A stretch of DNA of 64,000 nucleotides from a virus (IMGVR_UViG_3300037247_001890:1-64000); one strand, 5' to 3'; positions 37,798-57,299 are shown, counted from the stretch's first letter. Program-made: numbers and translations. The notes: a model not told the origin generated them from the sequence alone.

Positions 37798-37818
37798 CAA
37801 TAAATAGGAGAAATAAAT

Positions 37819-38355: not shown

Positions 38356-38362
38356 TAACCCT

Positions 38363-39500: not shown

Positions 39501-39504
39501 TAAC

Positions 39505-39580
39505 TGGCCGGTGGTGAAGCTTGGTCAAACACAGCGGGCCTTGGACCCGTTATTCGTAGGTTCAAATCCTACCCGGCTAA
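39505..39580 (+). tRNA. tRNA-Gln(TTG)
   Basis: U1-A72; gcggg-ccTTGga-cccgt. Confidence 0.85.
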
Positions 39581-40057: not shown

Positions 40058-40134
40058 CCGCCCGTATCTCCTCCGTCTGATAAGCGGTAGAAAGAGTAGT
40101 CGGTTACAGATTGGTTCAATTCCAATAGGGCGGA
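40058..40134 (+). tRNA. atypical tRNA-Ile(GAT)-like RNA with rearranged arms
   Basis: Acceptor ccgccc/gggcgg; ccgt-ctGATaa-gcgg arm precedes a D-like agtagtcggtta; T arm attgg-ttcaatt-ccaat. Confidence 0.6.
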
Positions 40135-40814
40135 CATGAAAGCAAAATTTATACAAGAAAACGTAATATTGAGTGAACATGAGGGCCCTTATGGATTGGA
40201 TCCTCACGATGACTGGACGGACACAGTAATAGAAGAATATCGTAAAAAATATTCAAATGGAAGAATATTTACTTCTACCAAAGAAAGCAGAATTCGCAAG
40301 GTGGGTGATTGGGCTCAATATTATTATATAATAGGCAAGGCAAAAGATGCGAGTTAAAATTACTAATTTTACGACATTGATGCAAAATGACAAGACATAT
40401 AATATTCAACAAAGATATTTCTTTAAGGCAACTTTAAGGTATGATGGCGGTTATGTTTATCGTTGTAAAGACGGCCACAGGTTTTATTTGTTTGCCTTAG
40501 ATCAAGCAGATTTAATTCATATAGGAATTTTAGGAAAGTTATATGGTACGGAAGAAAACAAGGTGGCATTATGATAAAAATTTATAAAATATGGATGGAA
40601 GGATATGCAGCTACCGGTGAAAAGAGTACCGCACAGTATGTTGGATCTGTAAAAGCTAAATCCTTCAAAGAAGCTTGCATAAAATTTTCCAAAACAAAAG
40701 AGGGAATAGAGAAACAATGGGATGAATTTTTTGAACCACAAAATCTTTCGTTCTGGGGATGCAAACTATTTGATAACGAAATAGATGCTCGTAGAGCATT
40801 TGGATAATGTTTAA

Positions 40815-40888
40815 TGGCCCGTAGTTCAGCCTGGTAGAACGGCACACTCATAATGTGAGAATCGATGGTTCAAATCCATTCGGGCCAA
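40815..40888 (+). tRNA. tRNA-Met/Ile2(CAT)
   Basis: caca-ctCATaa-tgtg; GGTTCAAATCC. Confidence 0.85.
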
Positions 40889-41032
40889 CTATGAAAGTTA
40901 GAATATTACCATCGGTGTTAGGCACTACTTGGAGGGGCGATTTTGATTCGTTTGGACTTCCAAAACGAATACTCAACACATCAAACAAATACTGGAAACA
41001 TATAGGATTGTATGATTTAACCATAGAAAAAC

Positions 41033-41458
41033 TTGCCGAATTGGCGAACAGCAGTGACAAGAAAAAAGGTTTCAAGACCTACAGAGATTTTAAACAATCT
41101 GGGTTTACTAAAAAATAAATCAATATTGGATTATGGCTGTGGAAAATCCATAGACTATATTCACATAGCAGATATGGATCGATTTGATCCTTATTTCTAT
41201 CCGGAAATAAAAAATAAAAAATATGAAGTTATTCTTTGTCATTATGTTATAAATGTAGTTAGCAAAGAAGAACAAAAACAAATAATAGAACATATTAAGA
41301 GCCTTCTGGCACCAGGAGGAAAAGCTTACTTCACAGTAAGGAGAGACATAAAAGAAGACATCCATTATAAAGACTATTCTCAAAGAGTTGTATATCTACC
41401 TTTTAAAACAATAAAAAAACACGCGGACTTTGAAATTTATGAATGGAGTGAGAGATGA
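41033..41458 (+). CDS. SAM-dependent methyltransferase (phosphorothioation-associated MTase-like catalytic domain)
   Basis: RTAVTRKKVSRP, ILDYGCGK, FDPYFYP, ILCHYVINVV; TTG start uncertain. Confidence 0.7.
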   Translation: MPNWRTAVTRKKVSRPTEILNNLGLLKNKSILDYGCGKSIDYIHIADMDRFDPYFYPEIKNKKYEVILCHYVINVVSKEEQKQIIEHIKSLLAPGGKAYFTVRRDIKEDIHYKDYSQRVVYLPFKTIKKHADFEIYEWSER

Positions 41459-41652
41459 ACAAAATTAAAGAACTTTGTATGAAGTTTAATAGGTTTTGGG
41501 ATGCTATTCCGGAACCTAAGCGTTTTATATATTTTGTAATAGCCGCTGCTTTTTGGTCCTGGGCACTATTATTAGAACCATTTGTGGCCATATTTATCGC
41601 AGCAATAGCATTATACATACGTTTCCAACGTTACGATACATAATGAATCAAC

Positions 41653-41728
41653 GGGGTATTAGAATAGTCCGGTTCAATTCGCCACCCTGTCAAGGTGGAA
41701 AACATGGGTTCAAATCCCGTATGCCCCG
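41653..41728 (+). tRNA. tRNA-Asp(GTC)
   Basis: ccacc-ctGTCaa-ggtgg; G73. Confidence 0.9.
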
Positions 41729-42293
41729 CTATGAAAACAACATTTATAAAAGAAAACATTTTATGTACTCTAACAAGAGCAGAGATAGGATATCTAAATT
41801 ATCTTCTAAAAACCTATGACGAAACAGATCTTGAAAAAGGTGAGTATATTTTACAAGTAATGAAAGAAAATAATTATTTTTATAAAATTGATGGTATACA
41901 TTATCAAGTATTAAAAATCAAAGGAGACTTAGAAGAAAAATTATGAAAGTAGTATGTATTGATGTTAGCATCGATTCAACAAATGATAGAAAAGAAACCT
42001 TGGACGAAATAAAACGCCGGCTCCAGGAATGCTTGAAAGACATGAAGGGGGCTAAATTAATTAAGAGATATAAAAATGTTTACATTAGTATGTGGGAATT
42101 AATATGAAACAAAAAAAAGCAAAAATAGTTTGTGGGAATGTATTAGCAGACATTTCAAAAGAAAAATTAGGAAAAATAATCGAGGAAGTAGTGCAAGAAG
42201 GTATGGATTCTTTAGACAAAACTTTAGAAAAATTTAATACCTTGGTATTTTTAGATTATGCCGGTAAACATGAATCTCGATATGTAGAAATTA

Positions 42294-42384
42294 GGAGGGT
42301 CTGACCTCATCGGCTGCGGGGCCTGGTCCTGAAAACCAGTGGCCGTCGCAAGGCGGTTTCAGAGTTCGAATCTCTGACCCTCTT
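42294..42384 (+). tRNA. tRNA-Ser(TGA)
   Basis: ctggt-ccTGAaa-accag; long variable arm. Confidence 0.85.
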
Positions 42385-42562
42385 CAATGAAAGTACAAAT
42401 AAAAACAACAATGTGGATTATCGAAAGAAATCCAAATATATCAAATGCAAGTTATGAGCTTCCAATAACATTAATTTTTAGAAGACATGAAAATCATTTA
42501 GGGTGGATCGACATAACCAATTTGATGGATGCAAAAGAAATATTTTTAACAGAAGGGCATAA

Positions 42563-43087
42563 ATGAAAGCAACTGGATACCAGTTAAGAGAAGCACTACG
42601 CCACTGGCGTAGTGTATTAGAAGGTCTTGCTATTGACCTAAAAGGATCTTTATATTACTTTGATCAGAAAGAAAAAATTAATCCTTTAACAGTAGCAGAA
42701 GACTACAGGGCAGCAGAAGATGCTGTATCAAGGATTGAAGAAGCACAACAAAAATATAATCTGCGTATAAATTTAACAATCGCAGATGAACCACAAACTC
42801 TGACTTATGCAATCAAAGCATTAGGAATGGCCGGTCGCTATGCTGCGATTTGGAAAGCAGTGGCAAGTGATAAACAAAGTGCTCGCGGATGGGGCGGCGA
42901 TAGATTAGAACGTGTAAGAAATAAAGATGATGTTCATGCGAAAAGATCTATCAGTAAAGAAGCGGCATCAAAGATGCGTACTGCTGCAAACAAGCATGCA
43001 TCTGATTTGAGACAAGCAATTGCATTAGCCAATGCAAGTAAACTAGAAATAGACATTCCTGAAAACCTGATTAATTTCGGGCGATAG
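42563..43087 (+). CDS. helical protein, DIP1984-like
   Basis: LREAL...IEEAQQKYN...TLTYAI...LRQAIALAN pattern. Confidence 0.4.
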   Translation: MKATGYQLREALRHWRSVLEGLAIDLKGSLYYFDQKEKINPLTVAEDYRAAEDAVSRIEEAQQKYNLRINLTIADEPQTLTYAIKALGMAGRYAAIWKAVASDKQSARGWGGDRLERVRNKDDVHAKRSISKEAASKMRTAANKHASDLRQAIALANASKLEIDIPENLINFGR

Positions 43088-43476
43088 GGAATGCCGAAGA
43101 GGCGGTGACCGTATCTGTTTGGTATTACAACCTGGCAGGGGAACTATGAAGGCTGGAAATTGCTAGAAGCTTAAAGCCTATACCAATACTTACCATAGGC
43201 AAGTACTCAAATCCACTTCAAGTATAACCATAGCTATTAGCTGTATACTGCCTCTTTTTAACTTAATTAACGCCGGCATAAACGTAACTCCGTGGTGAAG
43301 CTTCCTGAGGCGGGGTGTAGTGAGCTCCTCCAAGATACCGTCGAGGGTCAAATCTGGGATCTACACAGTCCCCAGCTAAGTCCCCTAAAGAGGTTTGTAT
43401 TCTAGAGGTGAGAGCTGTCTGTGATGAATACAAGCGTGAAATATCGGAAAAAGGAATACTCCGGCGTTAATTTTAT

Positions 43477-43562
43477 GGGGATATGGTGAAATGGCAGACA
43501 CATGGGACTTAAGATCCCATGGGGGAGACCCCGTGAAGGTTCAAGTCCTTCTATCCCCACCA
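43477..43562 (+). tRNA. tRNA-Leu(TAA) with encoded CCA
   Basis: tggga-ctTAAga-tccca; class II arm. Confidence 0.9.
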
Positions 43563-43785
43563 TGAAAAGCGTAAAATTTGTAAAACAATCAGTTCTCGTA
43601 AAAAAGAACAAAATAGAAGATGCTATGAATACTATAGCCCATGCACTGAAAACCGATCCTAGCTATAGAATAGGATGGTATGCGAATTTAACATTTAATA
43701 TATATGATAACAGCAAAGGTAGAATAAGCCAAGATACAGCGGGTAACATAGCAGACGTAATATTAAGAAACTTTTTTAAAGCTTA

Positions 43786-43870
43786 GGGCAAGTGGCGAAA
43801 GTGGCAAACGCGTTGTCTTCAAAAGGCAATCCTACAAAATAGGGTGTAGGTTCAAGTCCTACCTTGCCTA
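43786..43870 (+). tRNA. tRNA-Leu(CAA)
   Basis: ttgtc-ttCAAaa-ggcaa; class II arm; A73. Confidence 0.85.
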
Positions 43871-44158
43871 CTATGAAAAAAAGAACTGTCAACATGTCAG
43901 AAGAAGTTGTGTTTGACGACATAACAGAAAAAGTCGAGACAGAAAAAATAATTGGAGATCTCACAAAAAAGTGGAAAAATAAAGACTTTTCGATAAAAGT
44001 TTATTTTAATAAAAGAATTACTAAAATACAGAACGCGGCTAGTCAAGGTACAATAGACTTTATCAGAGCTTACAAACCAAAATAAACGGGCTGCTCAGGA
44101 CAAGCAAGGTTCGATTCCTTCTCCAAGACGTTGGAGCCTCGGTGGGGGCAGCCGGTAT

Positions 44159-44242
44159 GCGAGTGTGGCGAAGTTGGTAGACGCGCTAGATTTAGGATCT
44201 AGTGGGGGAAACCCCGGGAAGGTTCAAATCCTTTCACTCGTA
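44159..44242 (+). tRNA. tRNA-Leu(TAG)
   Basis: ctaga-ttTAGga-tctag; class II arm. Confidence 0.9.
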
Positions 44243-44467
44243 CTATTAGGAGGATTATGAAAGTAAAATTTACAAGCAACCCATACATTAAAGCATCTTG
44301 GCACGAAGCAACTGCCAAGTTAACAAAATTAACTAATGAATATTTGGATGAGGCAGGGAGTAGTGGTGATTTATTAAAAAAAGCAGAAGACGTTCTATAT
44401 AGACTAGGATGGACTTTAGAAGAATATCAAGAATTAAATAGACCGCCAACAAAGCGACATAAATAAT

Positions 44468-44540
44468 GGGCCTGTAGCTCAGACGGTAGAGCGATGGACT
44501 GAAAATCCATGCGCCGGTGATTCAACTTCACCTGGGCCCA
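44468..44540 (+). tRNA. tRNA-Phe(GAA)
   Basis: atgga-ctGAAaa-tccat. Confidence 0.9.
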
Positions 44541-44770
44541 CAAATCATAGGAGATATTATGACAGTAAATTTTATTGAACATAACACATTAAATTGGATA
44601 TTAATCAGAGAAGAAAGAATAGCTAAAAAAAGTGGTAGTTTTAGTGGTACTACTTACACAGATCCGCACGTTATTCTTAAAAGATCAATAACTCTTGATG
44701 AGTCCACAACTGCTATGGATGGAGCCGAAACAAAGAGATATTCACCTGGAATATATCGAGCAACAAAAAA

Positions 44771-44854
44771 GGAAGGATGGCAGAGAGGCTAATTGCAACG
44801 GTTTGCTAAATCGTCGTCCTCCGGGACACGTGGGTTCGAATCCCACTCCTTCCT
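44771..44854 (+). tRNA. tRNA-Ser(GCT)
   Basis: acggt-ttGCTaa-atcgt; class II arm. Confidence 0.9.
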
Positions 44855-45072
44855 CACTAAAAATGGCATAAGATAAATATGATAACGTTAAAGGAATACT
44901 TTAAAGAATTAAAGATCATAGAAAAAAGTCTCAATAAATCAAAAGATCCGGCTAATACATATGCCTGGGTCTGTGCTTTGGAGTCAAAACTTCATTCACT
45001 TGACAGTTTTTTAGATAACCAAAAAAATATTTACTACAAAGCAATGGTAAGAAACAAATTAGATAAAACATA

Positions 45073-45418
45073 ATCTTCGATTCGTGGCTCATAGTTTCTG
45101 TGGTAGTAATTAGATACGATCCATAAATTAACTACACTCGGGAGCGTCCAGTTCTATGGTGAAAACCCCATAACCAATGAATAGCTGTGGGTCATTGAAA
45201 CGAGAATGCGGGTGGAGAATCGGGAGTCCCGCCAGAACATGAGAGGAAACTCAGGACATCACTGCTAACGGTGGGAGAATTAAGTGTTGCAGCACTTAAA
45301 TCCAATACCACTTAGGATGCGACTCAAAATAGCTTAGAGGGAAAGCAGCTCTATAATAGCAAGGTAGAGGCCAATAGACAGATCACGAAATAATACAGAA
45401 TCCTGGTTATAAGAAGAT
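45073..45418 (+). ncRNA. rnpB: RNase P RNA with reduced specificity domain
   Basis: P1 atcttc/gaagat, P2 ttcgtgg/tcacgaa, P3 ctcat/atgag; GAGGAAACTCAGGAC and ACAGAATCCTGGTTAT match the P4 signatures. Confidence 0.8.
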
Positions 45419-45542
45419 AAACGCGCGACACGTCGTTCAGGGGACTAGGCATGTGTTGTTGGGCAGGCCATATGTTTGAATTTTCCGGATAGACCAACAG
45501 CCGGAAAAAGAGAGACTGTCCCCCGACGTGTACTTAAAAATA

Positions 45543-45571
45543 TTGACAAACAGCAGTAGATGTTGTAAATT
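45543..45571 (+). promoter_or_regulatory. sigma70 promoter
   Basis: TTGACA-17-TAAATT; SD AGGAGG before the ATG at 45597. Confidence 0.7.
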
Positions 45572-45596
45572 ACATAATATTTTAGGAGGTATTGAA

Positions 45597-46214
45597 ATGA
45601 AGAACGTAATTATATATTGTTTAGTAATGGCATGGCTTATTACCGCTGGTTGGTACACGGGGTATGTGATAAAAATAGAAGGCCAGTTGAAGTTTGCCGA
45701 ACGAAAATCCTTGTACCATGAAAAAATGCATGAAACCTATGAAAATGAATCAAAGGAACTTTATACTAAAGTAACCAAAATCAAATCATACATTGATGAT
45801 CTTTACCATGGGCAATCGTATTTGGTGACTTTGACAGGATATCATCCGGTAGTGGAACAATGTGACAGTACTCCCGACATTACAGCAGATGGGACTAAAA
45901 TTATCGTTGATCGAGCACGTAATTATCGTATAGCAGCATTAAGCAGAGATATGCTAAAACGATGGGGAGGCCCATTTAAATATGGGGATCTGATCCTAGT
46001 AAAAGGCACAAGAGACGGAGTGTACGATGGCATTTATCAAATTAGAGATACAATGCATCAAAGACATGAAAATTGGATAGATGTATTACTAACGCCTGGA
46101 GACAAGTCAACAAAACAGGATAACATTTTAATCTACAAACTCGAAGATGATTATCAGGGTATTTTCACCTTTTATAAAAATTATTCGGATGAATTTTATA
46201 GTTTATTAAATTAA
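45597..46214 (+). CDS. membrane-anchored 3D-domain (lytic transglycosylase-like) protein
   Basis: N-terminal TM helix; TGY...ITADG...AALSRD...RDTM...IDV. Confidence 0.75.
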   Translation: MKNVIIYCLVMAWLITAGWYTGYVIKIEGQLKFAERKSLYHEKMHETYENESKELYTKVTKIKSYIDDLYHGQSYLVTLTGYHPVVEQCDSTPDITADGTKIIVDRARNYRIAALSRDMLKRWGGPFKYGDLILVKGTRDGVYDGIYQIRDTMHQRHENWIDVLLTPGDKSTKQDNILIYKLEDDYQGIFTFYKNYSDEFYSLLN

Positions 46215-46222
46215 ACTCATAA

Positions 46223-46295
46223 CGCGGGGTGGTAGCAGTGGTAGCTCGCCTGGCTCATAACCAGGAGGTCGCCGGTTCAAATCCGGCCCCCGCTA
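46223..46295 (+). tRNA. tRNA-fMet-like (CAT)
   Basis: CGCGGGG start with 1:72 mismatch; cctgg-ctCATaa-ccagg. Confidence 0.85.
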
Positions 46296-46304
46296 CAATT
46301 ATAT

Positions 46305-46376
46305 CGCGCGGTAGGGCAGTGGTAGCCCGGGAGACTCATAACCTCCAGGTCGCCGGTTCAAATCCGGCCCGCGCTA
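46305..46376 (+). tRNA. second tRNA-fMet-like (CAT)
   Basis: CGCGCGG start with 1:72 mismatch; ctCATaa loop. Confidence 0.8.
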
Positions 46377-46702
46377 CTACATAGAAAGGAGGAGACAGGA
46401 CGCCTAGCGACCTGTGTAGTGCACCTCTTCCTTTCTTAGATTTCACATTTCACATTTAACCAATAAAAAATTATGGGCTTTGCAACATGTGAATACACTG
46501 GAGACACCGCTACAAGTGGATCCGTAAGAATTCATATTCCAGAAACAATTAATGCAACTACAGAGTCAGACGATAGTACATGGCTTAAACCAAAAGGGGT
46601 ATTCGAAAGGGTCTGTAAAAAATGCGGATCACCTTTTGATTCACTAAAAAGAAAAGCACAGGTATGTCTAGAGTGCAAACAAGAGAAAAAGCAAGTAGCA
46701 AC

Positions 46703-46775
46703 GGGTCGGTAGTGTTAGTGGTAGCACGCGAGATTGTGGCTCTCGTAGGGCGGGATTCGAATTCCTCACGACCCT
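46703..46775 (+). tRNA. tRNA-His(GTG)
   Basis: cgaga-ttGTGgc-tctcg. Confidence 0.8.
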
Positions 46776-47026
46776 CAACGGAGGTTTAAGAGATGAAGAT
46801 CCATATTTCAAAAGGCACCGGCATTAATAGATTAAGTAGAAGAATTAAACTAAAACCGGATACAAAAGAAGTGATCAGAGGACAATTAAGAGAAAATAAG
46901 ATCTTAAGAATGGATATTCAAGAAAATGGTAAATATGCTGCCGATGCTAATGACTTCTACGCAGATGTATTTTTTATATTTAATTTTCCACAAAGAAAAA
47001 TTCATAAAGCGTTAAAAGATTTTATA

Positions 47027-47101
47027 GGTCCCTTCGTCTAGCTTGGTTAGGACCCCGGCCCTTCAAGCCGATAACGGTGGGTTCGAATCCCCCAGGGATC
47101 A
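47027..47101 (+). tRNA. tRNA-Glu(TTC)
   Basis: cggc-ccTTCaa-gccg. Confidence 0.85.
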
Positions 47102-47651
47102 CTATGAAAACACGTATAGTAAACAAGAATGCTTTAAGAGAAGAAGGCGATGATCACGCCTGGACAGATGATCATCCTATAGTCATAGGAAAAATAGGAA
47201 CGGGCGCTTATTTTCCAATTACTTCTGGATCAGCTTTTATTACGCTTGAAGTATATTTATTCTATAAGGATTTTAAAAATGCAAGCTAATATTTTTCCAG
47301 GCTCAATAATATCAACAACAATAATGTGGGTGAGTATTACTCAAGCTGAAACAAGATTTTGGCCAGAGCACAGAAAACGCATAGGAGATATTATAGTAAC
47401 ATTTTCTAAGGATCATGCCACGACTACTTATAATGCAGAGGTAATAATAACAGATGAAACATGTGAATATTATTCGGGCAGCCAGATTAGTCCTTAAAGG
47501 CGGCCTTGATGTAACGCCAGAAGAAGAATTATATGGCATAATGATAGGCAAAGGGCTATACTATGAAGAAACTTTTGATGAAGATGGTATAGGCCATGCC
47601 TGGACAGATGACATCTACTTAGTTGATGATGAATATGAACCAGACTTTAAC

Positions 47652-47723
47652 GCGCCCATAGCCAAGTGGTAAGGCACTGGCCTCCAAAACCAGCATTCCA
47701 AAGTTCGAATCTTTGTGGGCGTG
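47652..47723 (+). tRNA. tRNA-Trp(CCA)
   Basis: ctgg-c-ctCCAaa-a-ccag; G73. Confidence 0.85.
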
Positions 47724-48019
47724 CAAAAAGGAGAGGATATTATGAAAGTCAAGTTTAGAGATAACCACTTAATATTCAGAACCTCAGTAGAAAAATTGAT
47801 ATACATCATCATGTCAGTAGCAACAAGAGATGGCGATGAGGAAGAAGCCATAGAAATACTACAAACTATGGGATGGACCGGCGAAGAACTTACAAGATTT
47901 GATAATGAATGGGCTGAATATTCGGAAAATTTAGAAATAGAAATAGGAAATGAGGCTGAATTATATAAAGAAGTAAAAAAGCGTATAAATCTTGAACAAT
48001 ATTGGTGTATGAAATAAAA

Positions 48020-48093
48020 GCCCCGGTAGCTCAACTGGATAGAGCAACGCCCTTCTAAGGCGTAGGTTTGGGATTCAAATTCCTGGCGGGGTA
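48020..48093 (+). tRNA. tRNA-Arg(TCT)
   Basis: acgcc-ctTCTaa-ggcgt. Confidence 0.9.
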
Positions 48094-48571
48094 CTAGAAA
48101 GGAGAAAAAAAATGGAAGACGAATATTTATCAATAGAACAATGTGAGCATAATAGTTTATATAAAATAGATGGCCGCAATTTTTCCCTTGGGGTATACAA
48201 TAAAAGAGAACAAGGTTTTGTAGGAATTCGCTTAAAATTCACAACGGAATTTCTTGATCTTGAGTATCATTGGGATACAGGACCTCCTAATGGAACAGTG
48301 AAACCTATTGAACTTCTTGAAAAATGTCCTATGGATGCGAACGATGAGAGCAAGGAATTATTTAAGTGGTTAAAAGAAAGACGCGAATATTATTTATGAA
48401 AGTTAAAATCGTAACAGGCACAAAAATAGACGAGATCAAACATGAGATTGGCGCAATCAAAAGGATGGATCAAGAAGGAATTATTTGGACACCCGCAGCA
48501 AGGATTCTGAGAAATTGGAAGCTTGCACAAGATATAAAATTCTCTTACTATAGGATATCAAAATGGAACAA

Positions 48572-48645
48572 GCCCCGTTAGCTCAGTGGATTAGAGCATC
48601 ACGCTACGGACGTGAGGGTCAAAGGTTCAAATCCTTTACGGGGTT
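48572..48645 (+). tRNA. tRNA-Arg(ACG)
   Basis: tcacg-ctACGga-cgtga. Confidence 0.9.
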
Positions 48646-49133
48646 CTATAAAAAATAGATAGAAGAAATTATGAAAAAATTAACATACATATTGGCATTC
48701 TTTATTACAAGTTGTATTTTTTGGCCGCCACCAACACAAAAATATTACACTAAAGATGTATGGAAATTTTTTAAGGATGATGCTGTAAATAATGTTGTTG
48801 TACATAAGATGCTCAAATATGATGAGGAAAAAGATGTATCTACTATTAAGTTAAAGTTTATAAACAACAATGATTCATTATATGTATTTATAAAATATCG
48901 ATTGTATATTATTTTTTATGAAGATAAGGAAAGTGAGTTTTATCGTAGAAAAAAAGGGGCTGTCTTGGGAAGTACGGAGAGAGAAGACAAAAATTTTCAC
49001 ATTAAACTTCGGCCTTACGGTTTTGCTATATCAACTGCTACTATGGATAGTATGCGAATAAGAAAAATATCTTTTTATTCGTATGAAGCAAAAAAATGGT
49101 TCAACACATTGCTTATTGAGTGAAATCATTAAA

Positions 49134-49205
49134 ACCCCTATAGTCTAGCGATAAGGCGTCCGGCTTACATCCGGAAGATCGGTGGTTCGAATCCATCTGG
49201 GGGTA
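49134..49205 (+). tRNA. tRNA-Val(TAC)
   Basis: tccgg-ctTACat-ccgga. Confidence 0.85.
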
Positions 49206-49392
49206 CTATGAAGACAAAGATAGTAGAAGCAGAAACTGTAGTTGTAGTAGAGTATCCATATGGTTTAAGAGAAAGAATCGCTATAGAAGATGTTATTTAC
49301 AAAAGATATTTTCAGGATTTTAGAAATAATCAAGAAATGACGCTGCTATATAAATTAGTAGGTTTTGAACAAAGAGAAGATTGGTAATAAAT

Positions 49393-49464
49393 GCCCCCTT
49401 GGTCTAGCGACATGGCGCCCGGGTTACATCCGGGAGAGCGGTGGTTTGAATCCATCAGGGGGCA
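49393..49464 (+). tRNA. second tRNA-Val(TAC), divergent
   Basis: cccgg-gtTACat-ccggg; T loop TTTGAAT instead of TTCGAAT. Confidence 0.7.
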
Positions 49465-49469
49465 CACAT

Positions 49470-49549
49470 GGGCTGTGGGACTGCTTTGGGGTGGTCACCT
49501 CGCTTGCACCGAGGACATCAGCAGGGTTCGAATCCCTGACGGTCCACCA
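49470..49549 (+). tRNA. tRNA-Ala(TGC) with encoded CCA
   Basis: cctcg-ctTGCac-cgagg; G3-U70. Confidence 0.9.
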
Positions 49550-49644
49550 CACGTGGTAGATTAACGAGAACTGGATGATGCCAGTAATGAGATCGCTGTA
49601 ACCTTCAGGGGTGCAGAAATGAGGTTCGAGTCCTCTCCGCGTGG
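49550..49644 (+). ncRNA. aberrant tRNA-like RNA (expanded D and anticodon loops)
   Basis: Acceptor cacgtgg/ccgcgtg; T arm gagg-ttcgagt-cctc; 11-nt anticodon-position loop accttcagggg. Confidence 0.5.
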
Positions 49645-50067
49645 CCTTATAAAACAAAATATGGACTCTTGTGATCAGTGTTGGTTCGACCCCAACCTCT
49701 CGGCTTATAAACCAGTGTAAAAGGATGGCATGAAGCGTAAGAGTGATCTTATAGTGACGGATGTTCTGTAACAAGAGTCCACTTTTCATAGAAAAAGGAA
49801 AATTTATGCTAGATGGTAATTATTATTTTGAATGTATTTGTGGCTGTGATGAGCACACTATAAGATTTACACTAGATAAAGAAGAAAAAGAAATTTACAC
49901 TTCGATATTCTTGGCTAGCCATCGGAACTTTTTCATACGAATTTGGCTGGGAATCAAGTATATTTTCGGTGGAAAAAGTCGGTATGGGCAATTTGGTAAT
50001 TGGTCATTAAATGTGCATGATGCCAATAGATTGGAAGACATGTTAAATATGCTAAAGGAGTTTAAAG

Positions 50068-51174
50068 ATGGGACCTCATAAAATATATGCAGAATATGCA
50101 GAAGGCGCTGCTTTAGATCAATTTTATGAAGCAATGAAACATGATACCGTTGTGCAAGGTGCTTTAATGCCTGACGCGCACAAAGGTTATTCATTGCCAA
50201 TAGGGGCTGTGATAGCAATGAAGGATGTTATATGGCCTGCCGCAGTAGGATACGATATTGGATGCGGTATGTGTGCTATGCCTACTTCATTTGAGAAAGC
50301 CCATGTGGAAGCACAAAAAGATCTTATTTTTGATAGGATATATGAACAAATTCCTGTTGGATTTAACTGGAACAAAAAGCGTGTTAATTTTCATGTGACA
50401 GGTGAACTAGAAAAAGAACCAATTACTCCCCATTTTAAAAAAATCTATAATGAAAGAGGAGTATTACAAATCGGTTCTCTTGGTGGAGGTAATCACTTCA
50501 TCGAAATAGGTTATGATGAAACAGATAAGGTCTGGATTATAATTCATTCCGGATCCAGAAATCTTGGACATAATATTGCCACTTATTACATGAAACTTGC
50601 ATCTGGTGATGGCAAAGCACGAGAAGGTTATTATGTATTGGATTTTCAAGGTATAGATGGCGCGAATTATGTGACAGATCTTAATTTTGCATTAGAATTT
50701 GCCTTGTTAAATCGTGGTGAAATAATAAAAAGAGTAGAAAAAATATTAAGTAAAGTTGCTAAAGGCCATGGTAACTGGGATGGGTTAATCAATCGCAATC
50801 ATAATCATGCTGAATTGAAAGATGGGCTATGGATACATCGCAAAGGTGCAACACATGCCGAAAAAGGTATGGAGGGAGTTATTCCTGGAAATATGCGTGA
50901 TGGTTCTTTTATTGTGAAAGGTAAAGGAGATCCTGAATCATTAAATTCCTCGGCACATGGTGCTGGTCGAGTATTAGGACGTCGTGCCGCTAAAGAAACC
51001 TTAAAGATGGAAGATTTTAAAAAATCCATGAAGGGAATTAAGGCAAAAGTAGGCACAGATACTATAGATGAATCTCCAGGTGCATATAAAAATATTTTTG
51101 ATGTGATGGAACAACAGAAAGATTTAGTCGAAGTCATGCATCATGTTAAACCTATTATTAATATAAAAGGATAA
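50068..51174 (+). CDS. rtcB: RtcB RNA ligase
   Basis: MPDAH.GY.LPIG, VGYDIGCGM, GSLGGGNHFIE, IHSGSR, HNHA, HRKGAT, SAHGAGR, DESP.AYK. Confidence 0.97.
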   Translation: MGPHKIYAEYAEGAALDQFYEAMKHDTVVQGALMPDAHKGYSLPIGAVIAMKDVIWPAAVGYDIGCGMCAMPTSFEKAHVEAQKDLIFDRIYEQIPVGFNWNKKRVNFHVTGELEKEPITPHFKKIYNERGVLQIGSLGGGNHFIEIGYDETDKVWIIIHSGSRNLGHNIATYYMKLASGDGKAREGYYVLDFQGIDGANYVTDLNFALEFALLNRGEIIKRVEKILSKVAKGHGNWDGLINRNHNHAELKDGLWIHRKGATHAEKGMEGVIPGNMRDGSFIVKGKGDPESLNSSAHGAGRVLGRRAAKETLKMEDFKKSMKGIKAKVGTDTIDESPGAYKNIFDVMEQQKDLVEVMHHVKPIINIKG

Positions 51175-51475
51175 TAATGAGTAACTTTAAAAAACCGGAT
51201 TTTGATCCATTCGGTAAAAAGAAAGAAGACTATATTCGTGATTATGGTCGTTTTTCAATAGCAAAAATCCATAGCGTTCATGAAGATTTAGGTTTAGTTA
51301 TTGGTGAATTAGATGAAAATGTTATGGGTGCCATTCCCATTAATTGGTTTACGAAAGTTAAAAAAAATACTTGGAGACCAAACGGACTAGCATGTCCTTA
51401 TATCTATATGGATGATTTTCGTCAGCTAGCAATTGATACGTATAATACAATTAAAGATCAAATAAAGGATCGCGT

Positions 51476-52390
51476 ATGATAGACAAAGAATTTAAAGTCT
51501 TAGACAAAGGATTTATACGTCTTGTGGACTATATGGGTTCTGACCAGGCTATAGTTCAAGCGGCCCGTGTTTCATATGGCAAGGGTACAAAAACGAAACG
51601 TGAAGACGAAGGACTTATTCGGTATCTCATGAGACATAGACACACGACACCCTTTGAGCAATGTGAACTAAAATTCCATGTTAAAGTACCCATGGATTGC
51701 TGGCGACAATGGATACGGCATCGCACAGCCAGTGTAAATGAATATTCTACTAGGTATTCAGAAGCTATTGACGACAAACAAGAAACCAGTGAATTTGACT
51801 GGCGCAAACAAGATACAACAAAAAATACACAGGGCAGTAGTGGCCTTTATCTTCCTGCTGAAGAAATAGGCGATGATGGACATCCCAGTGCAATTGGTAA
51901 GTGGCACACTATTCAGGAAAGAGCATTGCATAAAACAGCAGAAACAGTCTATAAAAATAGATTAAAAGCTGGTATCGCTCGCGAACAAGCACGTAAAGAT
52001 TTACCTTTGTCGACGTATACTATGGCCTACTGGAAAATTGATTTGCACAATCTGTTTCATTTCTTAGGATTGAGAATGGACAGTCATGCTCAATTAGAAA
52101 TTAGAAAATACGCCAATATCATTGGTTACGAGATTGTGGCAAAGATATTTCCTTTGGCATGGGGCGCATTTCTAGATTATCGATTGAATGCGATGACGTT
52201 GTCAGCAAGAGATATCCATATTATACAGCAAAAAATTATATATGGAGATAAATATCTAGAAAATTCAGATGATTATAATCCTTTTAATTGGTTGGAAAAG
52301 CGTGACGACGGAACATTAAAAGACAATCTCGAGCGGAAGGAATTCGAAGAAAAAGCAAAAGTGTTAGGAATAAAAGTTCCTTGGATATAA
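51476..52390 (+). CDS. thyX: FAD-dependent thymidylate synthase
   Basis: AARVSY, HTTPFE, RQWIRHRTASVNEYSTRYS, AREQAR, LR.DSHAQ.EIR. Confidence 0.97.
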   Translation: MIDKEFKVLDKGFIRLVDYMGSDQAIVQAARVSYGKGTKTKREDEGLIRYLMRHRHTTPFEQCELKFHVKVPMDCWRQWIRHRTASVNEYSTRYSEAIDDKQETSEFDWRKQDTTKNTQGSSGLYLPAEEIGDDGHPSAIGKWHTIQERALHKTAETVYKNRLKAGIAREQARKDLPLSTYTMAYWKIDLHNLFHFLGLRMDSHAQLEIRKYANIIGYEIVAKIFPLAWGAFLDYRLNAMTLSARDIHIIQQKIIYGDKYLENSDDYNPFNWLEKRDDGTLKDNLERKEFEEKAKVLGIKVPWI

Positions 52391-52394
52391 CTTC

Positions 52395-52468
52395 GGGTCC
52401 GTAGCTTAGCTGGTGAAGCATCCGCCTTTTAAGCGGAAGAGTGGCAGGTTCAAGTCCTCCCGGGCCTA
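52395..52468 (+). tRNA. tRNA-Lys(TTT)
   Basis: tccgc-ctTTTaa-gcgga. Confidence 0.9.
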
Positions 52469-53147
52469 CAAACAATAGTGTGGTTGGTTGAGCATAAAAC
52501 TTGAGCCTGTAATCCCGAACGAAAATAGACGAGAATGATCAATCTAAAAGATGACATGCCTCTATTTTTGGCCACACTATAAATAATTAAATACAGGAGG
52601 TTTATAATGGCAGCAGCAAAGAAATGCATTATAACTGGCAGAAACCGACTTACCGGTATTTTTTATATGTTGAATAAAAATACCAACACCATGAAAACAA
52701 TTTGGTGGACTTCTGGCAAGGAACCAAAAGTACGCAAAGAAACTGAACGTAAGATCTTTGGGTCTGGTTCGGAAGCAAAAACATTCCTAAGGTATTTAAG
52801 ACGCGAGCCAAGTGTTTTTGATATCAGATGGTTTTTGGAATACATTTAATAACCAATAGAAATAAATGGCAGATAAACAAAAGATCTTTGACGATGTCAA
52901 AGAAGAAAGAAAATATCAAGACAAAAAATGGGGATTAGAATTCGACAAGAATAATACAGCGAATGATTGGTCCTCATATATCATGACATATTTGGCAAAT
53001 GCTATAGCAATGCCAACTGGTTCTGACGAATACAGGCGATTGATGATCAAAGTAGCAGCCTTATCGTTTGCAGCAATAGAACTGCATGATGATAAATTAA
53101 TGCCAAACCGACATTACGAATAAAAAAAGGGACAGCGATGTCCCTAA

Positions 53148-53235
53148 GCTGGGTTCGCATAGTGGCCGATTGCACGGGGTTTGTAACCCTGAGAGTAGCA
53201 ATACTCCGCGTGAGTTCGAATCTCACACCCCAGCT
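53148..53235 (+). tRNA. tRNA-Thr(TGT) with a long variable arm
   Basis: cgggg-ttTGTaa-ccctg; G1-C72/C2-G71; gagt-agcaat-actc arm. Confidence 0.7.
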
Positions 53236-53527
53236 CTATGAATATAAAAACAATAATAGGAAAGAAAGTTGTAGCAATAAAAGGTTACAACTCGAGATGG
53301 AACGATAAGAGAGTAAAGCACCATAATACAGAACCAGAATATATATTATTTGATGATGGAAAAACTTTTATAGAATTGGAAGAACAAGATCACTATTCAT
53401 ATCATGATTGTAGTCTTACCGCCAGAGAAATATTAATCCAAAAAGACAAAGACAAATGGGATTCTATAATGACGAGCAAAATGTATAGTGATGCAACACA
53501 TAATTTATCAATGTACTAAGGTAAAAA

Positions 53528-54229
53528 ATGTTTAATAAATATGAAAAAACATATAGAATACAGACTCCTAATTTGAAAATATCCGGAAAGATGAACATGT
53601 CTAAAAAAGATGTTCAACGGTTATTGACAGGGAAAGTTACTATTGAAGAAAAGATTGACGGAGCTAATGTAGCTATTATAGGCATGGCATCAAACGTATC
53701 TTATTTTCGTCCGCCACGGCCATTTAGATTACAAAAGCGTGGATCATTGATTGATTTTTCTGAACATGAACAATATAATCGATTTAAGGCATGGTCAATG
53801 AAACAATGGAATAATTTGTCTAAGATAGAATACGGAATTTATGTATATGGTGAATTTATGTGGGCTACCCATCATATCTTTTATGATAATTTAACTGATT
53901 GGTTTGTATGTTTTGATATATGGGATGGTCGGAAATTTTACGACAGGCGAGAAAAAGAAAAATATTGTAATGATTTAAACTTCCAAATAATTCCATTGGT
54001 ATATGAAGGTTATATTGACGATATTATACACTTAGAAAGTTTTGTGCATGGCAAATCAGAATATAGTACAGATCATGATCGGGAAGGTATTGTAGTAAAA
54101 AATTACAGAAAACAAATGCGAGGAAAAATAGTAGTACCAGAATTTGTTAAAGAATTAAATGAAGATGGCACTCATTGGATGACTCGCTGGGATCCACGAA
54201 AAGTAAATAAATTAAAAAAGGAAATCTGA
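53528..54229 (+). CDS. ATP-dependent RNA ligase (Rnl2-like nucleotidyltransferase)
   Basis: EEKIDGAN (motif I), YGEF, FDI, EGIVVK. Confidence 0.85.
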   Translation: MFNKYEKTYRIQTPNLKISGKMNMSKKDVQRLLTGKVTIEEKIDGANVAIIGMASNVSYFRPPRPFRLQKRGSLIDFSEHEQYNRFKAWSMKQWNNLSKIEYGIYVYGEFMWATHHIFYDNLTDWFVCFDIWDGRKFYDRREKEKYCNDLNFQIIPLVYEGYIDDIIHLESFVHGKSEYSTDHDREGIVVKNYRKQMRGKIVVPEFVKELNEDGTHWMTRWDPRKVNKLKKEI

Positions 54230-54568
54230 TGGTACAACAAAAGGTCTATCGGAATATAAAAATGAGAGAAAAAAATTTCTTTATTAAAGCATTGGATTGC
54301 CTATTTTATTCTTGGGGAGGAGACACTCCTTCAGAGGTATTTTGGGGATGCAATGATTTACTTGAGTGGTTCGAACAGGAATATAAAGTCAAATTAAATA
54401 TAAGATTTGATGAAGGAAATCCTAATAGTAATTATGATGATGTTATAAAAGCAATAAGGAATGCCTAATTATGAGAATGCTGTGGGTATGGATAAAAGTA
54501 TATTGTATACTTTTAATATTATTTCCCTATTTTTGGTTTAGAGGAATGATAGAAGTAAGGAAAAAGAA

Positions 54569-54642
54569 GCATCATTAGCTCATCGTGGTAGAGCGTCAGA
54601 CTTCCAATCTGAAGGTGGTCAGTTCAAGCCTGACATGGTGCT
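54569..54642 (+). tRNA. tRNA-Gly(TCC)
   Basis: tcaga-ctTCCaa-tctga; U73. Confidence 0.9.
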
Positions 54643-54656
54643 CATGAAAACATAAA

Positions 54657-54728
54657 GCGGGCATAATTCAGTGGTAGAATTTTTCGTTGCCAACGAAATC
54701 GCCGTGAGTTCGAATCTCACTGTCCGCT
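54657..54728 (+). tRNA. tRNA-Gly(GCC)
   Basis: tttcg-ttGCCaa-cgaaa; U73. Confidence 0.9.
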
Positions 54729-55629
54729 CTCATTAAAACAAAAGGAAAATAATGAAAATAGAAGTTGATGAAAATAGGGACATTATATTGAAAGATGTTT
54801 TTAATGGTGTCGGATTTATATCTCCCGACGGCGAAAAATTTAATATATGCATGCGTGATGGCGGCTATGAATTTAGTTATCAAGGAACATGGTTTCGTGC
54901 AGTTGGTGGAATAATGGAAATAATAAATTTAAATCCTATAAAGGACAAAAAATGATATTTTGGATAGCACTAATTTTATTACTTTGGATTATCTCCATAG
55001 TATTTAATGACATAGAAGACTCGCTGGCGCATCATTATAAAAGCACAGTCTTTGACTGGCTGCCGAAGCATACATGGCTATCCTGGTATATGAAGGATCC
55101 GGATACGACTTGGAAAAGAAAGTATATTTGGTTGCCGGCCGGCCGTGATGGTGAAACAAAAGCAGGCAGGAAAAAATTTCTTGGCATAATAATACCAGCA
55201 TTTTTCTTTGATGGTTGGCATGGAGCAAAAATTATAAGACAATTTTTCCAGTATTTAACAATTTACGTGGGCATAAATAGCGGAATAGCAATTCCATTTA
55301 TATTAGGCTTGTTACTATTTATGATCAGTAACCAAATCACTCATTCCCACTTGTTTTATGGTGGAATGTTTCTAAAAAAATGGTGGGAATAATTCCCACT
55401 TTACAGAGAACGGAGGAATAATGGGCAACAGATATTTTTTAACGATCAAATGTCCTAGTTGTGGTTATTTCGACGAGGATGTTTATTATGCTCCCACTTG
55501 TGGTTTTGTAGATTGGAGATGTCCTAAATGCGGTAAGGTTGTAGATTTAGAGGAAGAGACTGGTATTAGTTATGAGGACGCATCTAATCTTGGAGCCATT
55601 AAGAAGCTGTGTTCTAAGTTTGAAAAGAA

Positions 55630-55702
55630 AGGGGATAAGTCTTAACGGTGAGACGGGTGCTTTGGGAGCATCAGGCGGTCGGTTCGATCCCGGCATCCCC
55701 TA
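55630..55702 (+). tRNA. tRNA-Pro(TGG)
   Basis: ggtgc-ttTGGga-gcatc. Confidence 0.85.
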
Positions 55703-55703
55703 C

Positions 55704-56008
55704 AAAAATCGATGGGCTTTCCTCGGAAACACAATGCGTAGTATTGTGGTCAAAACCTGGAATATTATGTAGTGCGATTTGAAGCAGTCCGGAGCGCGTA
55801 TCAAACAGTAAATAGTCGGACCTTGGGACAGCAGTCCGGTAAGGATGTCTTGAATCTCGAACCCCTGCTGTGGTAGCTTTTGTAAATCTTAATGGAGCCT
55901 ACGTGAACGTTTGTAACGTAACCCGTCGTCGACAGTCCCATACGTGGGGCGACTGGCACGCCGTAAGTTCATTTATCCAGTAACGTGAATAATCCCCCAT
56001 CGATTTTT
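55704..56008 (+). ncRNA. ~305-nt orphan structured RNA between tRNA-Pro and tRNA-Cys
   Basis: 13-bp closing stem aaaaatcgatggg/cccatcgattttt; GC-richer, no convincing ORF. Confidence 0.6.
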
Positions 56009-56012
56009 TAAT

Positions 56013-56083
56013 GATTCCGTGGCCGAGTGGCTAGGCGAGAGACTGCAAATCTTTTTACGTCAGTTCAAATCTGACCGGAATCT
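56013..56083 (+). tRNA. tRNA-Cys(GCA)
   Basis: agaga-ctGCAaa-tcttt; U73. Confidence 0.9.
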
Positions 56084-56953
56084 CTATGAGAAGGAAAAAA
56101 TGAAAGAAAAAAGATTTCACATTTTACAAGCAAATAGCCTCAATAAAGAAGATATTATTGTGGGAGGTCTTTACAGATATGATCAAATTGCAACTGTAAG
56201 AAAAAATAAAACCTATGAAGGACAAAAAACATTAAGAGTACAAACTTTAGCGGGTGCACGTTATATGAGACTTACCTATTTTCAAGATAGAAACTTCTAT
56301 ATAAGAATAGAAAGAGAATTGCATCTTTTAGATGGACTACCTATTTCGGGACAAGTAGATTCAAAGTTATATAGAAAAACAGTTGATATAGAAGCATCTC
56401 AAAAGTTTTTAGGATATCTAGATTCTTTGCCAGAAGAAGTGGTAAAACCAAAAACACCTATAGAGCAACTACAAGAGCAAATGTATTGAAAGGACTACAC
56501 ATAATCGAATCAGAAACCCCAGGAATTACAAAAATAAAATTAAAAACTAGCGATAGAAAACCGATGTTTGCCAAAGGTTCTAATTCTGAAAGATCCGATT
56601 GGTCGTCTTATAAAATGTTTAAAAAATATAAAAAATACAAAAACAAAAAAATATTAAAAATGTATCGAAGTTCGTGGAATAGCGATGAATTTTTTATCAA
56701 ACATTTTATGTGAAAGCAAATGCAATGAAAGAATTACACATAATTGAATCAGAAACTCCGGGAGTAACACGAAGTAAAGTAAAGGTGGAAAAAATAATCA
56801 AACATTTTGCAATAGACCTTGATATAGAGCTTGGAGATTTTTCATCATTGGAAATAGAAAAACAGAAAGGTTGGTACAGAGGACACAAAATATTAAGGAT
56901 ATATCGCAGTTCATGGAAAGAAGATGAATATTTCGTTAGGCATTTCATGTGAT

Positions 56954-57037
56954 GGAGCGGTGGCAGAGTTGGTTGATCGCGCGAGGTTGTAGCCCTCGAC
57001 TGTAAAAAGCACGGTGGTTCGAATCCATCCCGCTTCA
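56954..57037 (+). tRNA. tRNA-Tyr(GTA)
   Basis: cgagg-ttGTAgc-cctcg; class II arm. Confidence 0.85.
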
Positions 57038-57299
57038 CAAGAACTTCTTCGGAGGAAGTTAAGGCAAGGTTATAATCCGACTGCAACAACATAAGATTAG
57101 ATTAATAGAGGATAGAAAGATGCTAACCGGTTTAGATGATAATGGTAAATTTCGCTGCATCTTTCAGAAATGAAAAGTAGTCGAGAGTCTACTCCTTTGA
57201 GTCCTTGTGATGCATTCCATCGCTTAGGATTACTTTTCATTTTTCATTTTATTATGGCATAATAGAAGTACAATCAATCTTTATTCTAAGGAGATATTT

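Follow-up and report, generated by a model that had tools for sequence, protein, structure and literature searches.

In leaderless mRNAs such as that of lambda cI, transcription begins at the AUG itself. The translation of leaderless mRNAs requires a 5'-proximal AUG and a 5'-phosphate, and a 5'-phosphate is also what the cuts of RNase Z, RNase E and RNase P leave behind. In animal mitochondria, punctuation of the transcript by tRNAs was reportedly described by Ojala, Montoya and Attardi in 1981, and two reviews treat it (PMC3790967, PMC4394434). At the 3' end of tRNAs, S. coelicolor cuts those that encode CCA after C74 (PMC4681348). We found no published description in the literature of the phage tRNA-ORF junction reported here.

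The junction lies in a window of 64,000 nucleotides, which is the whole stretch of DNA analysed, from the genome of an uncultured phage of about 170 kb (the record has 169 kb). The 27 tRNAs that ARAGORN calls all lie on the + strand within 19 kb, from 37.7 to 57.0 kb, and the rest of the 169-kb record has none. The locus is a phage tRNA array of the kind found in large phages of lytic type, with many tRNAs and interspersed small ORFs; all its genes are on one strand, and RtcB, ThyX and tmRNA genes lie within or beside it. The Rfam tRNA model stops at the discriminator, for tRNA-Met at 40815-40888, so that N73 is 40888 and the following nucleotides 40889, 40890 and 40891 are C74, T75 and A76. 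Numbered in this way, 9 of the 27 tRNAs are followed by an ATG whose A is tRNA position 76. The nine coordinates that the earlier note had given for these ATGs are all correct, each with the sequence N73-C-(T/A/C)-ATG. With a per-position ATG frequency of 0.019 the probability of at least nine in 27 is 1.1e-9, and the same enrichment conditional on A76 has P = 1.6e-6; the junction pattern is real and far from chance. The proposal that all nine are starts of microproteins holds for eight, which open ORFs of 59-93 aa, while the ATG at 56086 after tRNA-Cys opens 5 codons only. Likewise, of two ATGs placed one base earlier, the one at 40136 begins a real 73-aa ORF and the one at 54644 a 3-codon remnant, so that ORFs directly adjoining same-strand tRNAs number eight at position 76 and one at position 75. 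The features are:

40058..40134, + strand: tRNA-Ile-like element with acceptor stem, CTGATAA loop and T arm, in alignment with a canonical tRNA-Ile from L134; called by neither ARAGORN nor Rfam
40136..40357, + strand: 73-aa ORF, beginning one base past the C that follows the Ile-like element
40815..40889, + strand: tRNA-Met(cat) (ARAGORN; Rfam 61.6 bits), N73 = 40888, C74 = 40889
40891..41118, + strand: 75-aa ORF after tRNA-Met, ATG at position 76, without Shine-Dalgarno (SD) site
41653..41729, + strand: tRNA-Asp(gtc) (ARAGORN, Rfam)
41731..41946, + strand: 71-aa ORF after tRNA-Asp, ATG at position 76, without SD
42294..42385, + strand: tRNA-Ser(tga) (ARAGORN)
42387..42566, + strand: 59-aa ORF after tRNA-Ser(tga), start at position 76 in C-A-ATG, without SD
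43477..43562, + strand: tRNA-Leu(taa) (ARAGORN), CCA encoded, A76 being the A of ATG (true CCATG)
43562..43786, + strand: 74-aa ORF after tRNA-Leu(taa), ATG at position 76
43786..43871, + strand: tRNA-Leu(caa) (ARAGORN, Rfam)
43873..44085, + strand: 70-aa ORF after tRNA-Leu(caa), ATG at position 76, without SD
47027..47102, + strand: tRNA-Glu(ttc) (ARAGORN, Rfam)
47104..47289, + strand: 61-aa ORF after tRNA-Glu, ATG at position 76, without SD
49134..49206, + strand: tRNA-Val(tac) copy 1 (ARAGORN, Rfam)
49208..49387, + strand: 59-aa ORF after tRNA-Val copy 1, ATG at position 76, without SD
53148..53236, + strand: tRNA-Thr(tgt) (ARAGORN), 89 nt with an extra arm, Rfam just 36.5 bits
53238..53519, + strand: 93-aa ORF after tRNA-Thr, ATG at position 76, without SD
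54569..54655, + strand: tRNA-Gly(tcc) with the 3-codon ATG remnant at position 75 (ATG 54644)
56013..56103, + strand: tRNA-Cys with a 5-codon ORF at position 76 (ATG 56086) that overlaps the SD and start of the true gene

The position 75 of the ORF at 40136 is assigned by homology with L134, where the orthologue of this conserved ORF starts at position 75 after a canonical tRNA-Ile. The true gene after tRNA-Cys, of 129 aa, starts at 56100 with an AAGGA SD ahead. The slot of tRNA-Gly(tcc) holds a 60-aa ORF at position 75 in L159, which marks the copy in the present phage as a deletion remnant. An ATG at the junction with no gene behind it is seen at tRNA-Gly(tcc) and tRNA-Cys in this phage, at tRNA-Leu(tag) in L159 and at tRNA-Ile in G1.

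The relatives compared with this phage were G1, L134, L137, L138, L139, L146, L147, L148 and L159. The junction is present in nine further contigs, and it is retained though the array proteins are 35-79% identical among relatives: of 46 junctions in ten contigs, in a tally that scored ATG and left GTG and TTG at these positions outside the count, 39 are at position 76, six at 75 and one at 77. The enrichment of the offset in relatives that the earlier note had anticipated is thus strong. T5 has no abutting ORF at any of its 23 tRNAs, T4 has none either, and in unrelated IMG/VR arrays about 1% of 488 tRNAs at 120 loci have an abutting ORF at position 76. The clade has 25 abutting ORFs at 75 tRNAs against 9 at 511 in the controls (Fisher P = 2e-17). 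Most abutting ORFs are syntenic orthologues, and they are unrelated to one another, so that the common junction was not inherited from a single duplicated module.

The ORF after tRNA-Leu(taa) starts at position 76 in eight lineages and at 75 in L134; its N-terminus is kept from M1 in seven sequences, with residues 1-16 as the best conserved part, and its dN/dS is 0.19-0.29 against nearer relatives and 0.48 against G1. The ORF after tRNA-Leu(caa) (dN/dS 0.18-0.23) starts at position 76 in all 8 of the 8 lineages that hold it, and with the ORF after tRNA-Glu (0.26 against L134) these make three families with dN/dS of 0.18-0.29 against nearer relatives. The Met, Asp and Ser ORFs reach 0.66-0.97 in some pairs, which indicates weak constraint. 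The Met ORF spans this range, and its orthologues are also at position 76 in G1 (43% identity), L134 and L159; those of the Asp ORF (0.75) are so in L134 and L159, and the Ser ORF starts at position 76 in G1, L134 and L138 and at 75 in L137. An in-frame upstream start is impossible for the Ser and Thr ORFs, and many lineages have none for their abutting ORFs. In L159 the slot of the Thr ORF is taken by a 93-aa ORF at position 77 (matched by slot and length), and the N-terminal third of the Val ORF has its match in the ORF at position 76 of tRNA-Arg(acg) in L134 and L159. Searches of the small ORFs against Pfam gave no family, and those against PHROGs gave a single weak match, to one of unknown function. 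As judged from these comparisons, the abutting ORFs are real protein genes that code from their first codon.

The claim that no SD site fits the abutting starts was borne out, as no match of at least 4 nt to the anti-SD complement occurs 3-20 nt upstream of them. Most other array ORFs have AAGGA, AGGAG or AGGAGG 3-8 nt before the start. Starts after tRNAs fall into two classes only, positions 75-77 without SD or position 88 and beyond mostly with SD, and no real ORF among the tRNA-proximal ORFs of the array and its relatives starts at positions 79-87. The first 27 nt past the ATG of abutting ORFs are 56% A against 45% in other array ORFs (P = 0.0009). The ATG-only abutting starts, the A-rich first codons and the two start classes fit an initiation that would depend on a 5' end close by. 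Orthologues can switch between the abutting and the SD-led state, and the indels that separate the two are small (12-15 nt). For the Leu-tag ORF, this phage, L134 and L139 have the SD-led form and G1, L146 and L148 the abutting one, the difference being 12 nt inserted or deleted between TAT repeats. The His ORF has an SD here and abuts its tRNA in G1, and the Phe ORF has an SD here and starts at position 75 in L146.

The best reading, to which we give a probability of about 0.5, is that tRNA 3' processing releases near-leaderless mRNAs. Long tRNA-mRNA precursors would be transcribed from the array (about 40-57 kb), endonucleolytic tRNA 3' maturation at or just past N73 or C74 would leave the downstream RNA with a 5'-monophosphate 0-2 nt ahead of the AUG, and ribosomes would translate the freed RNA by the leaderless route, with no SD. 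That tRNAs and ORFs share transcripts, that a cut is made and where it falls, and that translation is leaderless are inferred from the sequence. Strong hairpins lie at 40016-40049 and near 55.9 kb, and in the interval a pattern scan of the + strand gives weak terminator-like hairpins only. Promoter-like sites are as frequent as expected by chance (73 against 71 in shuffles), and no promoter-like hexamers fit within tRNA 3' halves.

This tRNA-maturation model, put forward in the earlier note, is partly supported: it predicted the offset enrichment and conserved real ORFs that are found among the relatives, but it is at odds with the tRNA tails and with the stops. Every one of the 27 tRNAs of this phage has an encoded C74, C75 is absent from 25 and A76 is present in 22, also in 13 of the 18 non-abutting ones; a cut by RNase Z directly after N73 does not explain this tail composition. 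A cut after C74 of the S. coelicolor type (PMC4681348) would explain the invariant C74 and leave 0-1 nt before the AUG, and the needs of the tRNA tail may in part determine where the ATG lies. As to the stops, most tRNAs have a gap of -22 to +10 nt on their 5' side, and eight ORFs have a stop inside the next tRNA (1-22 nt) or sharing its base, an arrangement kept in G1 where checked. ORF 42104-42304 terminates 11 nt within tRNA-Ser(tga) and the ORF upstream of tRNA-Glu(ttc) 15 nt within that tRNA. Complete tRNA excision would leave such ORFs stopless, their stops being lost at the RNase P cut, and at least some translation therefore seems to proceed from unprocessed RNA; the stops argue against strict punctuation. 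The weak constraint on some abutting ORFs and the junction ATGs without a gene also speak against the model. The ORF after tRNA-Leu(taa) has a stop TAG whose G is the first base of tRNA-Leu(caa), the stop ending at 43786 where the tRNA starts, and the same overlap of coordinates is seen in G1, L134, L138, L146, L147 and L148. By its coordinates this is a stop that excision would leave incomplete, as in punctuation. It is tempting to speculate that the phage clade runs a mitochondrion-like expression, in which tRNA excision would be obligatory to make translatable near-leaderless mRNAs for small proteins and some of these would lose their stops and rely on 3' A-addition or the phage tmRNA, and we offer this only as a tentative possibility. 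If true, it would tie microprotein output to the tRNA-processing capacity of the host.

The translation from unprocessed RNA that the stops suggest could also be the general case. The array would then be shaped by compaction, with SD-independent internal initiation on unprocessed or partly processed precursors, position 76 being the first that spares C74 (and the favoured A76) and the A-rich, unstructured first codons permitting initiation without SD. The overlaps of 1-22 nt with tRNA 5' ends are extreme packing and imply translation before RNase P cleavage, the C-W-A tail is found on non-abutting tRNAs as well, the first codons are indeed A-rich, and some SD-less starts are distant from tRNAs (44879, 46473, 48671). 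However, the stable acceptor/T-arm helix would be 3 nt away from the start codon, within the 30S footprint, and the packing is not absolute, as ten tRNA-proximal ORFs have spacers of 14-25 nt, most with a strong SD. A free SD-independent mode would also allow starts at positions 79-87, which are empty of real ORF starts, and we consider this explanation rather unlikely.

Insertion of cassettes at specific sites at tRNA 3' ends, the alternative first offered, is poorly supported: most abutting ORFs are syntenic orthologues, the changes of state are indels of 12-15 nt, and no repeats flank the ORFs apart from the ends of the tRNAs; integron-like cassettes have flanking recombination sites and a recombinase, and no repeats were found at the ORF 3' ends. 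In a weaker form of the idea, the sequence C-T-ATGAAA, common to the ends of tRNAs and the starts of genes, would serve as microhomology for the swap, insertion and deletion of modules, and the phase would be a by-product of shuffling. Such events can be recognised: in this phage an extra module of a 150-aa ORF and tRNA-Val copy 1 separates tRNA-Arg(acg) from an ORF that directly adjoins this tRNA in L134 and L159, in G1 the ORF next to tRNA-Glu is missing and the position 76 start belongs to the one behind it (orthologue of 47279-47497), deletion remnants retain first codons, and a GIY-YIG/NUMOD3 homing-endonuclease gene lies inside the L134 array. Shuffling as the origin of the phase is nevertheless improbable, since most abutting ORFs are syntenic orthologues across deep divergence, repeats in the array are confined to tRNA arms, junctions and a pair of tandem paralogues, and ORF 3' ends have no cassette-like sites. 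It also leaves the translation of SD-less ORFs unexplained and would complement the other readings, not replace them.

Termination-reinitiation or shunting across the folded tRNA, by which an ATG held close by the acceptor stem would receive the ribosomes that terminate at the tRNA 5' end or within it, is very improbable, because the upstream ORF ends that invite it (24 nt before to 15 nt inside the tRNA for 7 of 8 abutting tRNAs) are equally near at tRNAs preceding SD-led ORFs, so that there is no association, and because about 389 nt of non-coding DNA precede tRNA-Leu(taa), whose ORF, the best conserved abutting one, cannot be explained by reinitiation from an upstream ORF.

Release of near-leaderless messages by tRNA maturation would place this array close to animal mitochondria, where tRNAs likewise flank coding sequences directly and messages lack a leader and SD, as is predicted for the phage. 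ORF 43562-43786, which has a tRNA on either side and a stop whose last base is supplied by the tRNA that follows, resembles the incomplete mitochondrial stops. Unlike mitochondria, this is a bacterial virus with strong SDs at most genes, about one third of its tRNAs take part, the start codon shares tRNA position 76 instead of following the tRNA gene, several stops lie deep within the next tRNA, and the processing is a prediction. Compared with actinobacteria such as S. coelicolor, the phage differs in its DNA of 36% G+C and its strong SDs. The clusters of T5 and T4 are similar in being long one-strand arrays of about 25 tRNAs and small ORFs with homing-endonuclease and RNA-repair genes near, but T5 encodes CCA in 22 of 23 tRNAs, and its nearest ORF starts are SD-led and at least at position 88. 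The abutting ORFs share with the leaderless mRNAs of bacteria and phages the AUG as sole start codon, the lack of an SD and a 5' end predicted 0-2 nt away; in contrast to those of the lambda cI type, this end would be a monophosphate made by RNA processing and not the product of a promoter.

Nine of the 27 tRNAs in the window are followed by an ATG whose A is tRNA nucleotide 76 (N73-C-N-ATG, N73 being the discriminator), as the earlier note had claimed. The Rfam tRNA model stops at the discriminator, while ARAGORN appends C to 25 tRNAs and CCA to 2; in tRNA-Met, which anchors the numbering, 40888 is N73, 40889 is C74 and 40891 is A76. At the ATG frequency of 0.019 per position, nine such ATGs are expected by chance with P = 1.1e-9, and with P = 1.6e-6 given an A at position 76. 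Eight of the nine open ORFs of 59-93 aa. The Cys ATG does hold position 76 but is not a gene start, as it leads into five codons only and overlies the Shine-Dalgarno (SD) site of the real start at 56100. Two further ATGs had been placed one base earlier: that of the Ile-like element leads a 73-aa ORF, whose orthologue in the relative contig L134 starts at position 75 behind a canonical tRNA-Ile, while that after tRNA-Gly-tcc lies at position 75 and opens only three codons. Since the same slot in the relative L159 carries a 60-aa ORF, the Gly-tcc ATG is a deletion remnant. The claim that SD sites are missing also held, with none before a junction start and AAGGA to AGGAGGT at 3-8 nt before most other ORFs of the array. 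Three of the tRNA elements are themselves unusual:

40058-40134, + strand: tRNA-Ile(GAT)-like element with rearranged body (acceptor stem, CTGATAA loop, T arm), uncalled by ARAGORN and Rfam; a canonical tRNA-Ile takes its place in L134 and in the related phage contig G1
53148-53236, + strand: tRNA-Thr of 89 nt with an extra arm (75 nt in G1 and L159)
49478-49549, + strand: tRNA-Ala(tgc), anticodon at position 28 and CCA encoded, so that the D region looks reduced

The virus record (169,274 bp in IMG/VR, about 85% complete, about 36% G+C, the window being its first 64 kb) carries its full set of 27 tRNA genes on the + strand at 37.7-57.0 kb, among about 45 small ORFs and genes for RtcB, ThyX and a DUF2828/DUF7788 protein. 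Megablast found no cultured close relative, and tblastn with a 638-aa phage protein gave no match. The DNA polymerase reaches at best 30% identity, to Listeria phages, and RtcB up to 54%, to Proteus and Cronobacter phages; in Privateer, one of the phages matched by RtcB, the 31 kb surrounding that gene hold just three annotated tRNAs, each followed by an SD-led ORF. A host search by scanning genome contigs with the GDP-mannose dehydratase matched nothing. Other features observed were:

5813-10271, - strand: sugar/cofactor modification cluster (B12-binding radical SAM protein, C-methyltransferase, GDP-mannose 4,6-dehydratase)
43088-43476, 45074-45596, 49550-49805 and 55704-56012, + strand: non-coding stretches of 250-520 nt each in an otherwise tightly packed array
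56486-56713 and 56725-56952, + strand: tandem paralogous ORFs of 75 aa each (phmmer E = 4e-21), the array's sole paralogue pair
57300-58682, + strand: DUF2828/DUF7788 protein
58784-58911, + strand: weak Rfam match to YrlA (Y RNA-like), 34 bits versus a gathering score of 69

With RtcB, encoded 6 kb upstream, the last two recall the bacterial Rsr/Y-RNA/RtcB RNA-repair module. The four non-coding stretches matched no Rfam family at E up to 0.01, and RNase P RNA, considered for 45073-45418, was rejected because none of the Rfam RNase P families matched 45060-45610 even when E values up to 10 were allowed.

Relatives were recruited through homologues of RtcB, DUF2828 and the Leu-taa ORF (ORFs are named by the preceding tRNA), and the offset enrichment that the earlier note expected in them was borne out: 46 tRNA-ORF junctions were tabulated on 10 contigs, with 39 starts at position 76, six at 75 and one at 77.

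tRNA arrays and abutting real ORFs (starts at positions 75-77)
Window: 27 tRNAs and the Ile-like element; 9 abutting ORFs
G1 (156 kb; RtcB 79% identical, same tRNA order): 27 tRNAs; 8 abutting ORFs
L134 (40.6-kb ENA contig): 20 tRNAs seen; 8 abutting ORFs
L159 (38-kb contig): 23 tRNAs; 8 abutting ORFs
L137, L138, L145-L148 (short contigs): few tRNAs each; junctions seen

The Met, Leu-taa, Leu-caa and Glu slots are abutting in all arrays that hold them, and in many lineages an upstream in-frame start is impossible for the junction ATG. Where an ORF beside a tRNA has been lost or gained, the new neighbour again starts at position 76 (Glu in G1; Arg-acg versus Val1). Real ORFs after a tRNA start either at positions 75-77 without SD or at position 88 or later, mostly with a strong SD, and some orthologues occur in both states, which makes them a ready basis for simple reporter designs.

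Orthologous ORFs in two start states
Leu-tag ORF: SD-led in the window, L134 and L139; abutting in G1, L146 and L148
His ORF: SD-led in the window; abutting in G1
Phe ORF: SD-led in the window; abutting in L146 (position 75)

The two states of the Leu-tag ORF differ by a 12-nt indel between TAT repeats. The fraction of A in the first 27 nt is 0.56 in abutting ORFs versus 0.45 in the others (P = 0.0009), and the second codon is AAA in seven of the nine abutting ORFs.

Selection on the encoded proteins is uneven. Against its nearer relatives the Leu-taa ORF has a dN/dS of 0.19-0.29; the Leu-caa ORF has 0.18-0.23 and the Glu ORF 0.26, and constraint is weak on the Met, Asp and Ser ORFs (0.66-0.97 in some pairs); conservation of the Leu-taa protein is highest at residues 1-16. 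Searches of the abutting ORFs against Pfam and PHROG gave no Pfam family, no PHROG of known function and one weak match to a PHROG of unknown function. All-against-all phmmer ruled out that they are paralogues of one another, and the junction is therefore convergent rather than derived from one duplicated unit. Gene callers miss such starts or lengthen the ORF upstream into the tRNA; for two homologues the databases give 98 and 100 aa in place of 74.

Outside this clade the arrangement is sparse. T5, with CCA encoded in 22 of 23 tRNAs, and T4 have no abutting ORFs, and 120 IMG/VR loci with 488 tRNAs, a choice biased in favour of the pattern, gave five ORFs at position 76 (about 1%), so that the high junction density is a trait of the phage clade. 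Large unrelated arrays (21-27 tRNAs) hold none or one such ORF each, and isolated CCATG junctions do exist elsewhere. A generic IMG/VR scan (T-loop, then ATGAAA within 5-35 nt) showed no sharp peak at position 76, which again makes the density clade-specific; a scan with the clade's own junction pattern returned G1 and random non-tRNA matches only.

The tRNA tails follow a pattern of their own. C74 is encoded in 27/27 tRNAs (37723-57038), position 75 is not C in 25, and A76 is present in 22, including 13 of the 18 without an abutting ATG (P = 0.001). The typical tail is thus C-(T/A)-A, close to CCA, and an abutting ATG takes its A; such tails also dominate in G1 and L134 and are common among the 488 tRNAs of unrelated IMG/VR contigs (CAA in 67 and CTA in 47, beside CCA in 214). 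The invariant C74 and avoided C75 hint that the 3' ends of phage tRNAs mature by an unstudied rule. In S. coelicolor, cleavage after C74 has been mapped (PMC4681348); a cut there fits the invariant C74, and the classical RNase Z cut after N73 fits it less well. An invariant C74 would also be compatible with its pairing to RNase P RNA. Among phage-encoded processing enzymes, a CCA-adding enzyme domain (PF01743) was sought and is absent, and one candidate for RNase Z was found:

G000 131488-132237 (L140:1378-2127), + strand: MBL-fold ORF, 249 aa (Lactamase_B_2, 54.8 bits)

We do not take it for an RNase Z, since NCBIfam gives it only weak and partial matches (to RNase Z, PhnP and cyclic-nucleotide phosphodiesterase), with scores far below the cut-offs.

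The simplest reading, to which we assign a probability of about 0.5, is that tRNA 3' maturation would set the mRNA 5' end 0-2 nt ahead of the AUG and that ribosomes would then enter by the leaderless route; both cleavage and translation are what we infer. A 5' end made in this way would explain the exact phase, the missing SD, the ATG-only starts (ATG alone was tallied), the A-rich start and the two states. A scan for promoters inside the tRNAs stayed at chance level. The ORF stops count against a strict punctuation model: eight ORFs run 1-22 nt into the tRNA that follows them, and several of these have the conserved T8-A9-G10 as their TAG.

ORFs ending inside a tRNA
42104-42304
43562-43786 (Leu-taa ORF)
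44559-44792
46473-46712
46793-47041
47454-47672
48396-48581
55421-55645

In G1 the His and Trp overlaps are kept, and the G of the Leu-taa TAG is the first nucleotide of tRNA-Leu-caa in all lineages with the junction seen. Full excision would therefore strip these messages of their stops, so that some translation would have to precede RNase P cleavage, or the stops be repaired by A-addition, or the messages be handled by tmRNA. A phage tmRNA, which could be relevant to such messages, was missed by ARAGORN and is followed by a strong terminator hairpin (36595-36627):

36251-36596, + strand: tmRNA just upstream of the tRNA array (Rfam RF00023, 91.8 bits versus a gathering score of 47)

The same stops keep alive SD-independent internal initiation on unprocessed RNA, which we nevertheless consider unlikely. 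That recombination produced the junction seems more doubtful still; such an origin is compatible with either way of translation and leaves translation itself unexplained. The best conserved abutting ORF cannot be explained by reinitiation from an upstream ORF, since about 389 nt of non-coding sequence precede its tRNA.

Full-text searches of the literature turned up neither start codons on tRNA position 76 nor leaderless mRNAs made by tRNA processing in a phage or bacterium; as far as we found, processing-defined starts are known in organelles and apparently undescribed in bacteria and phages. If tRNA maturation makes leaderless mRNAs in infected bacteria, RNA processing, and not promoters or SD sites, would define a class of starts, for which tRNA punctuation in mitochondria is the closest known system.
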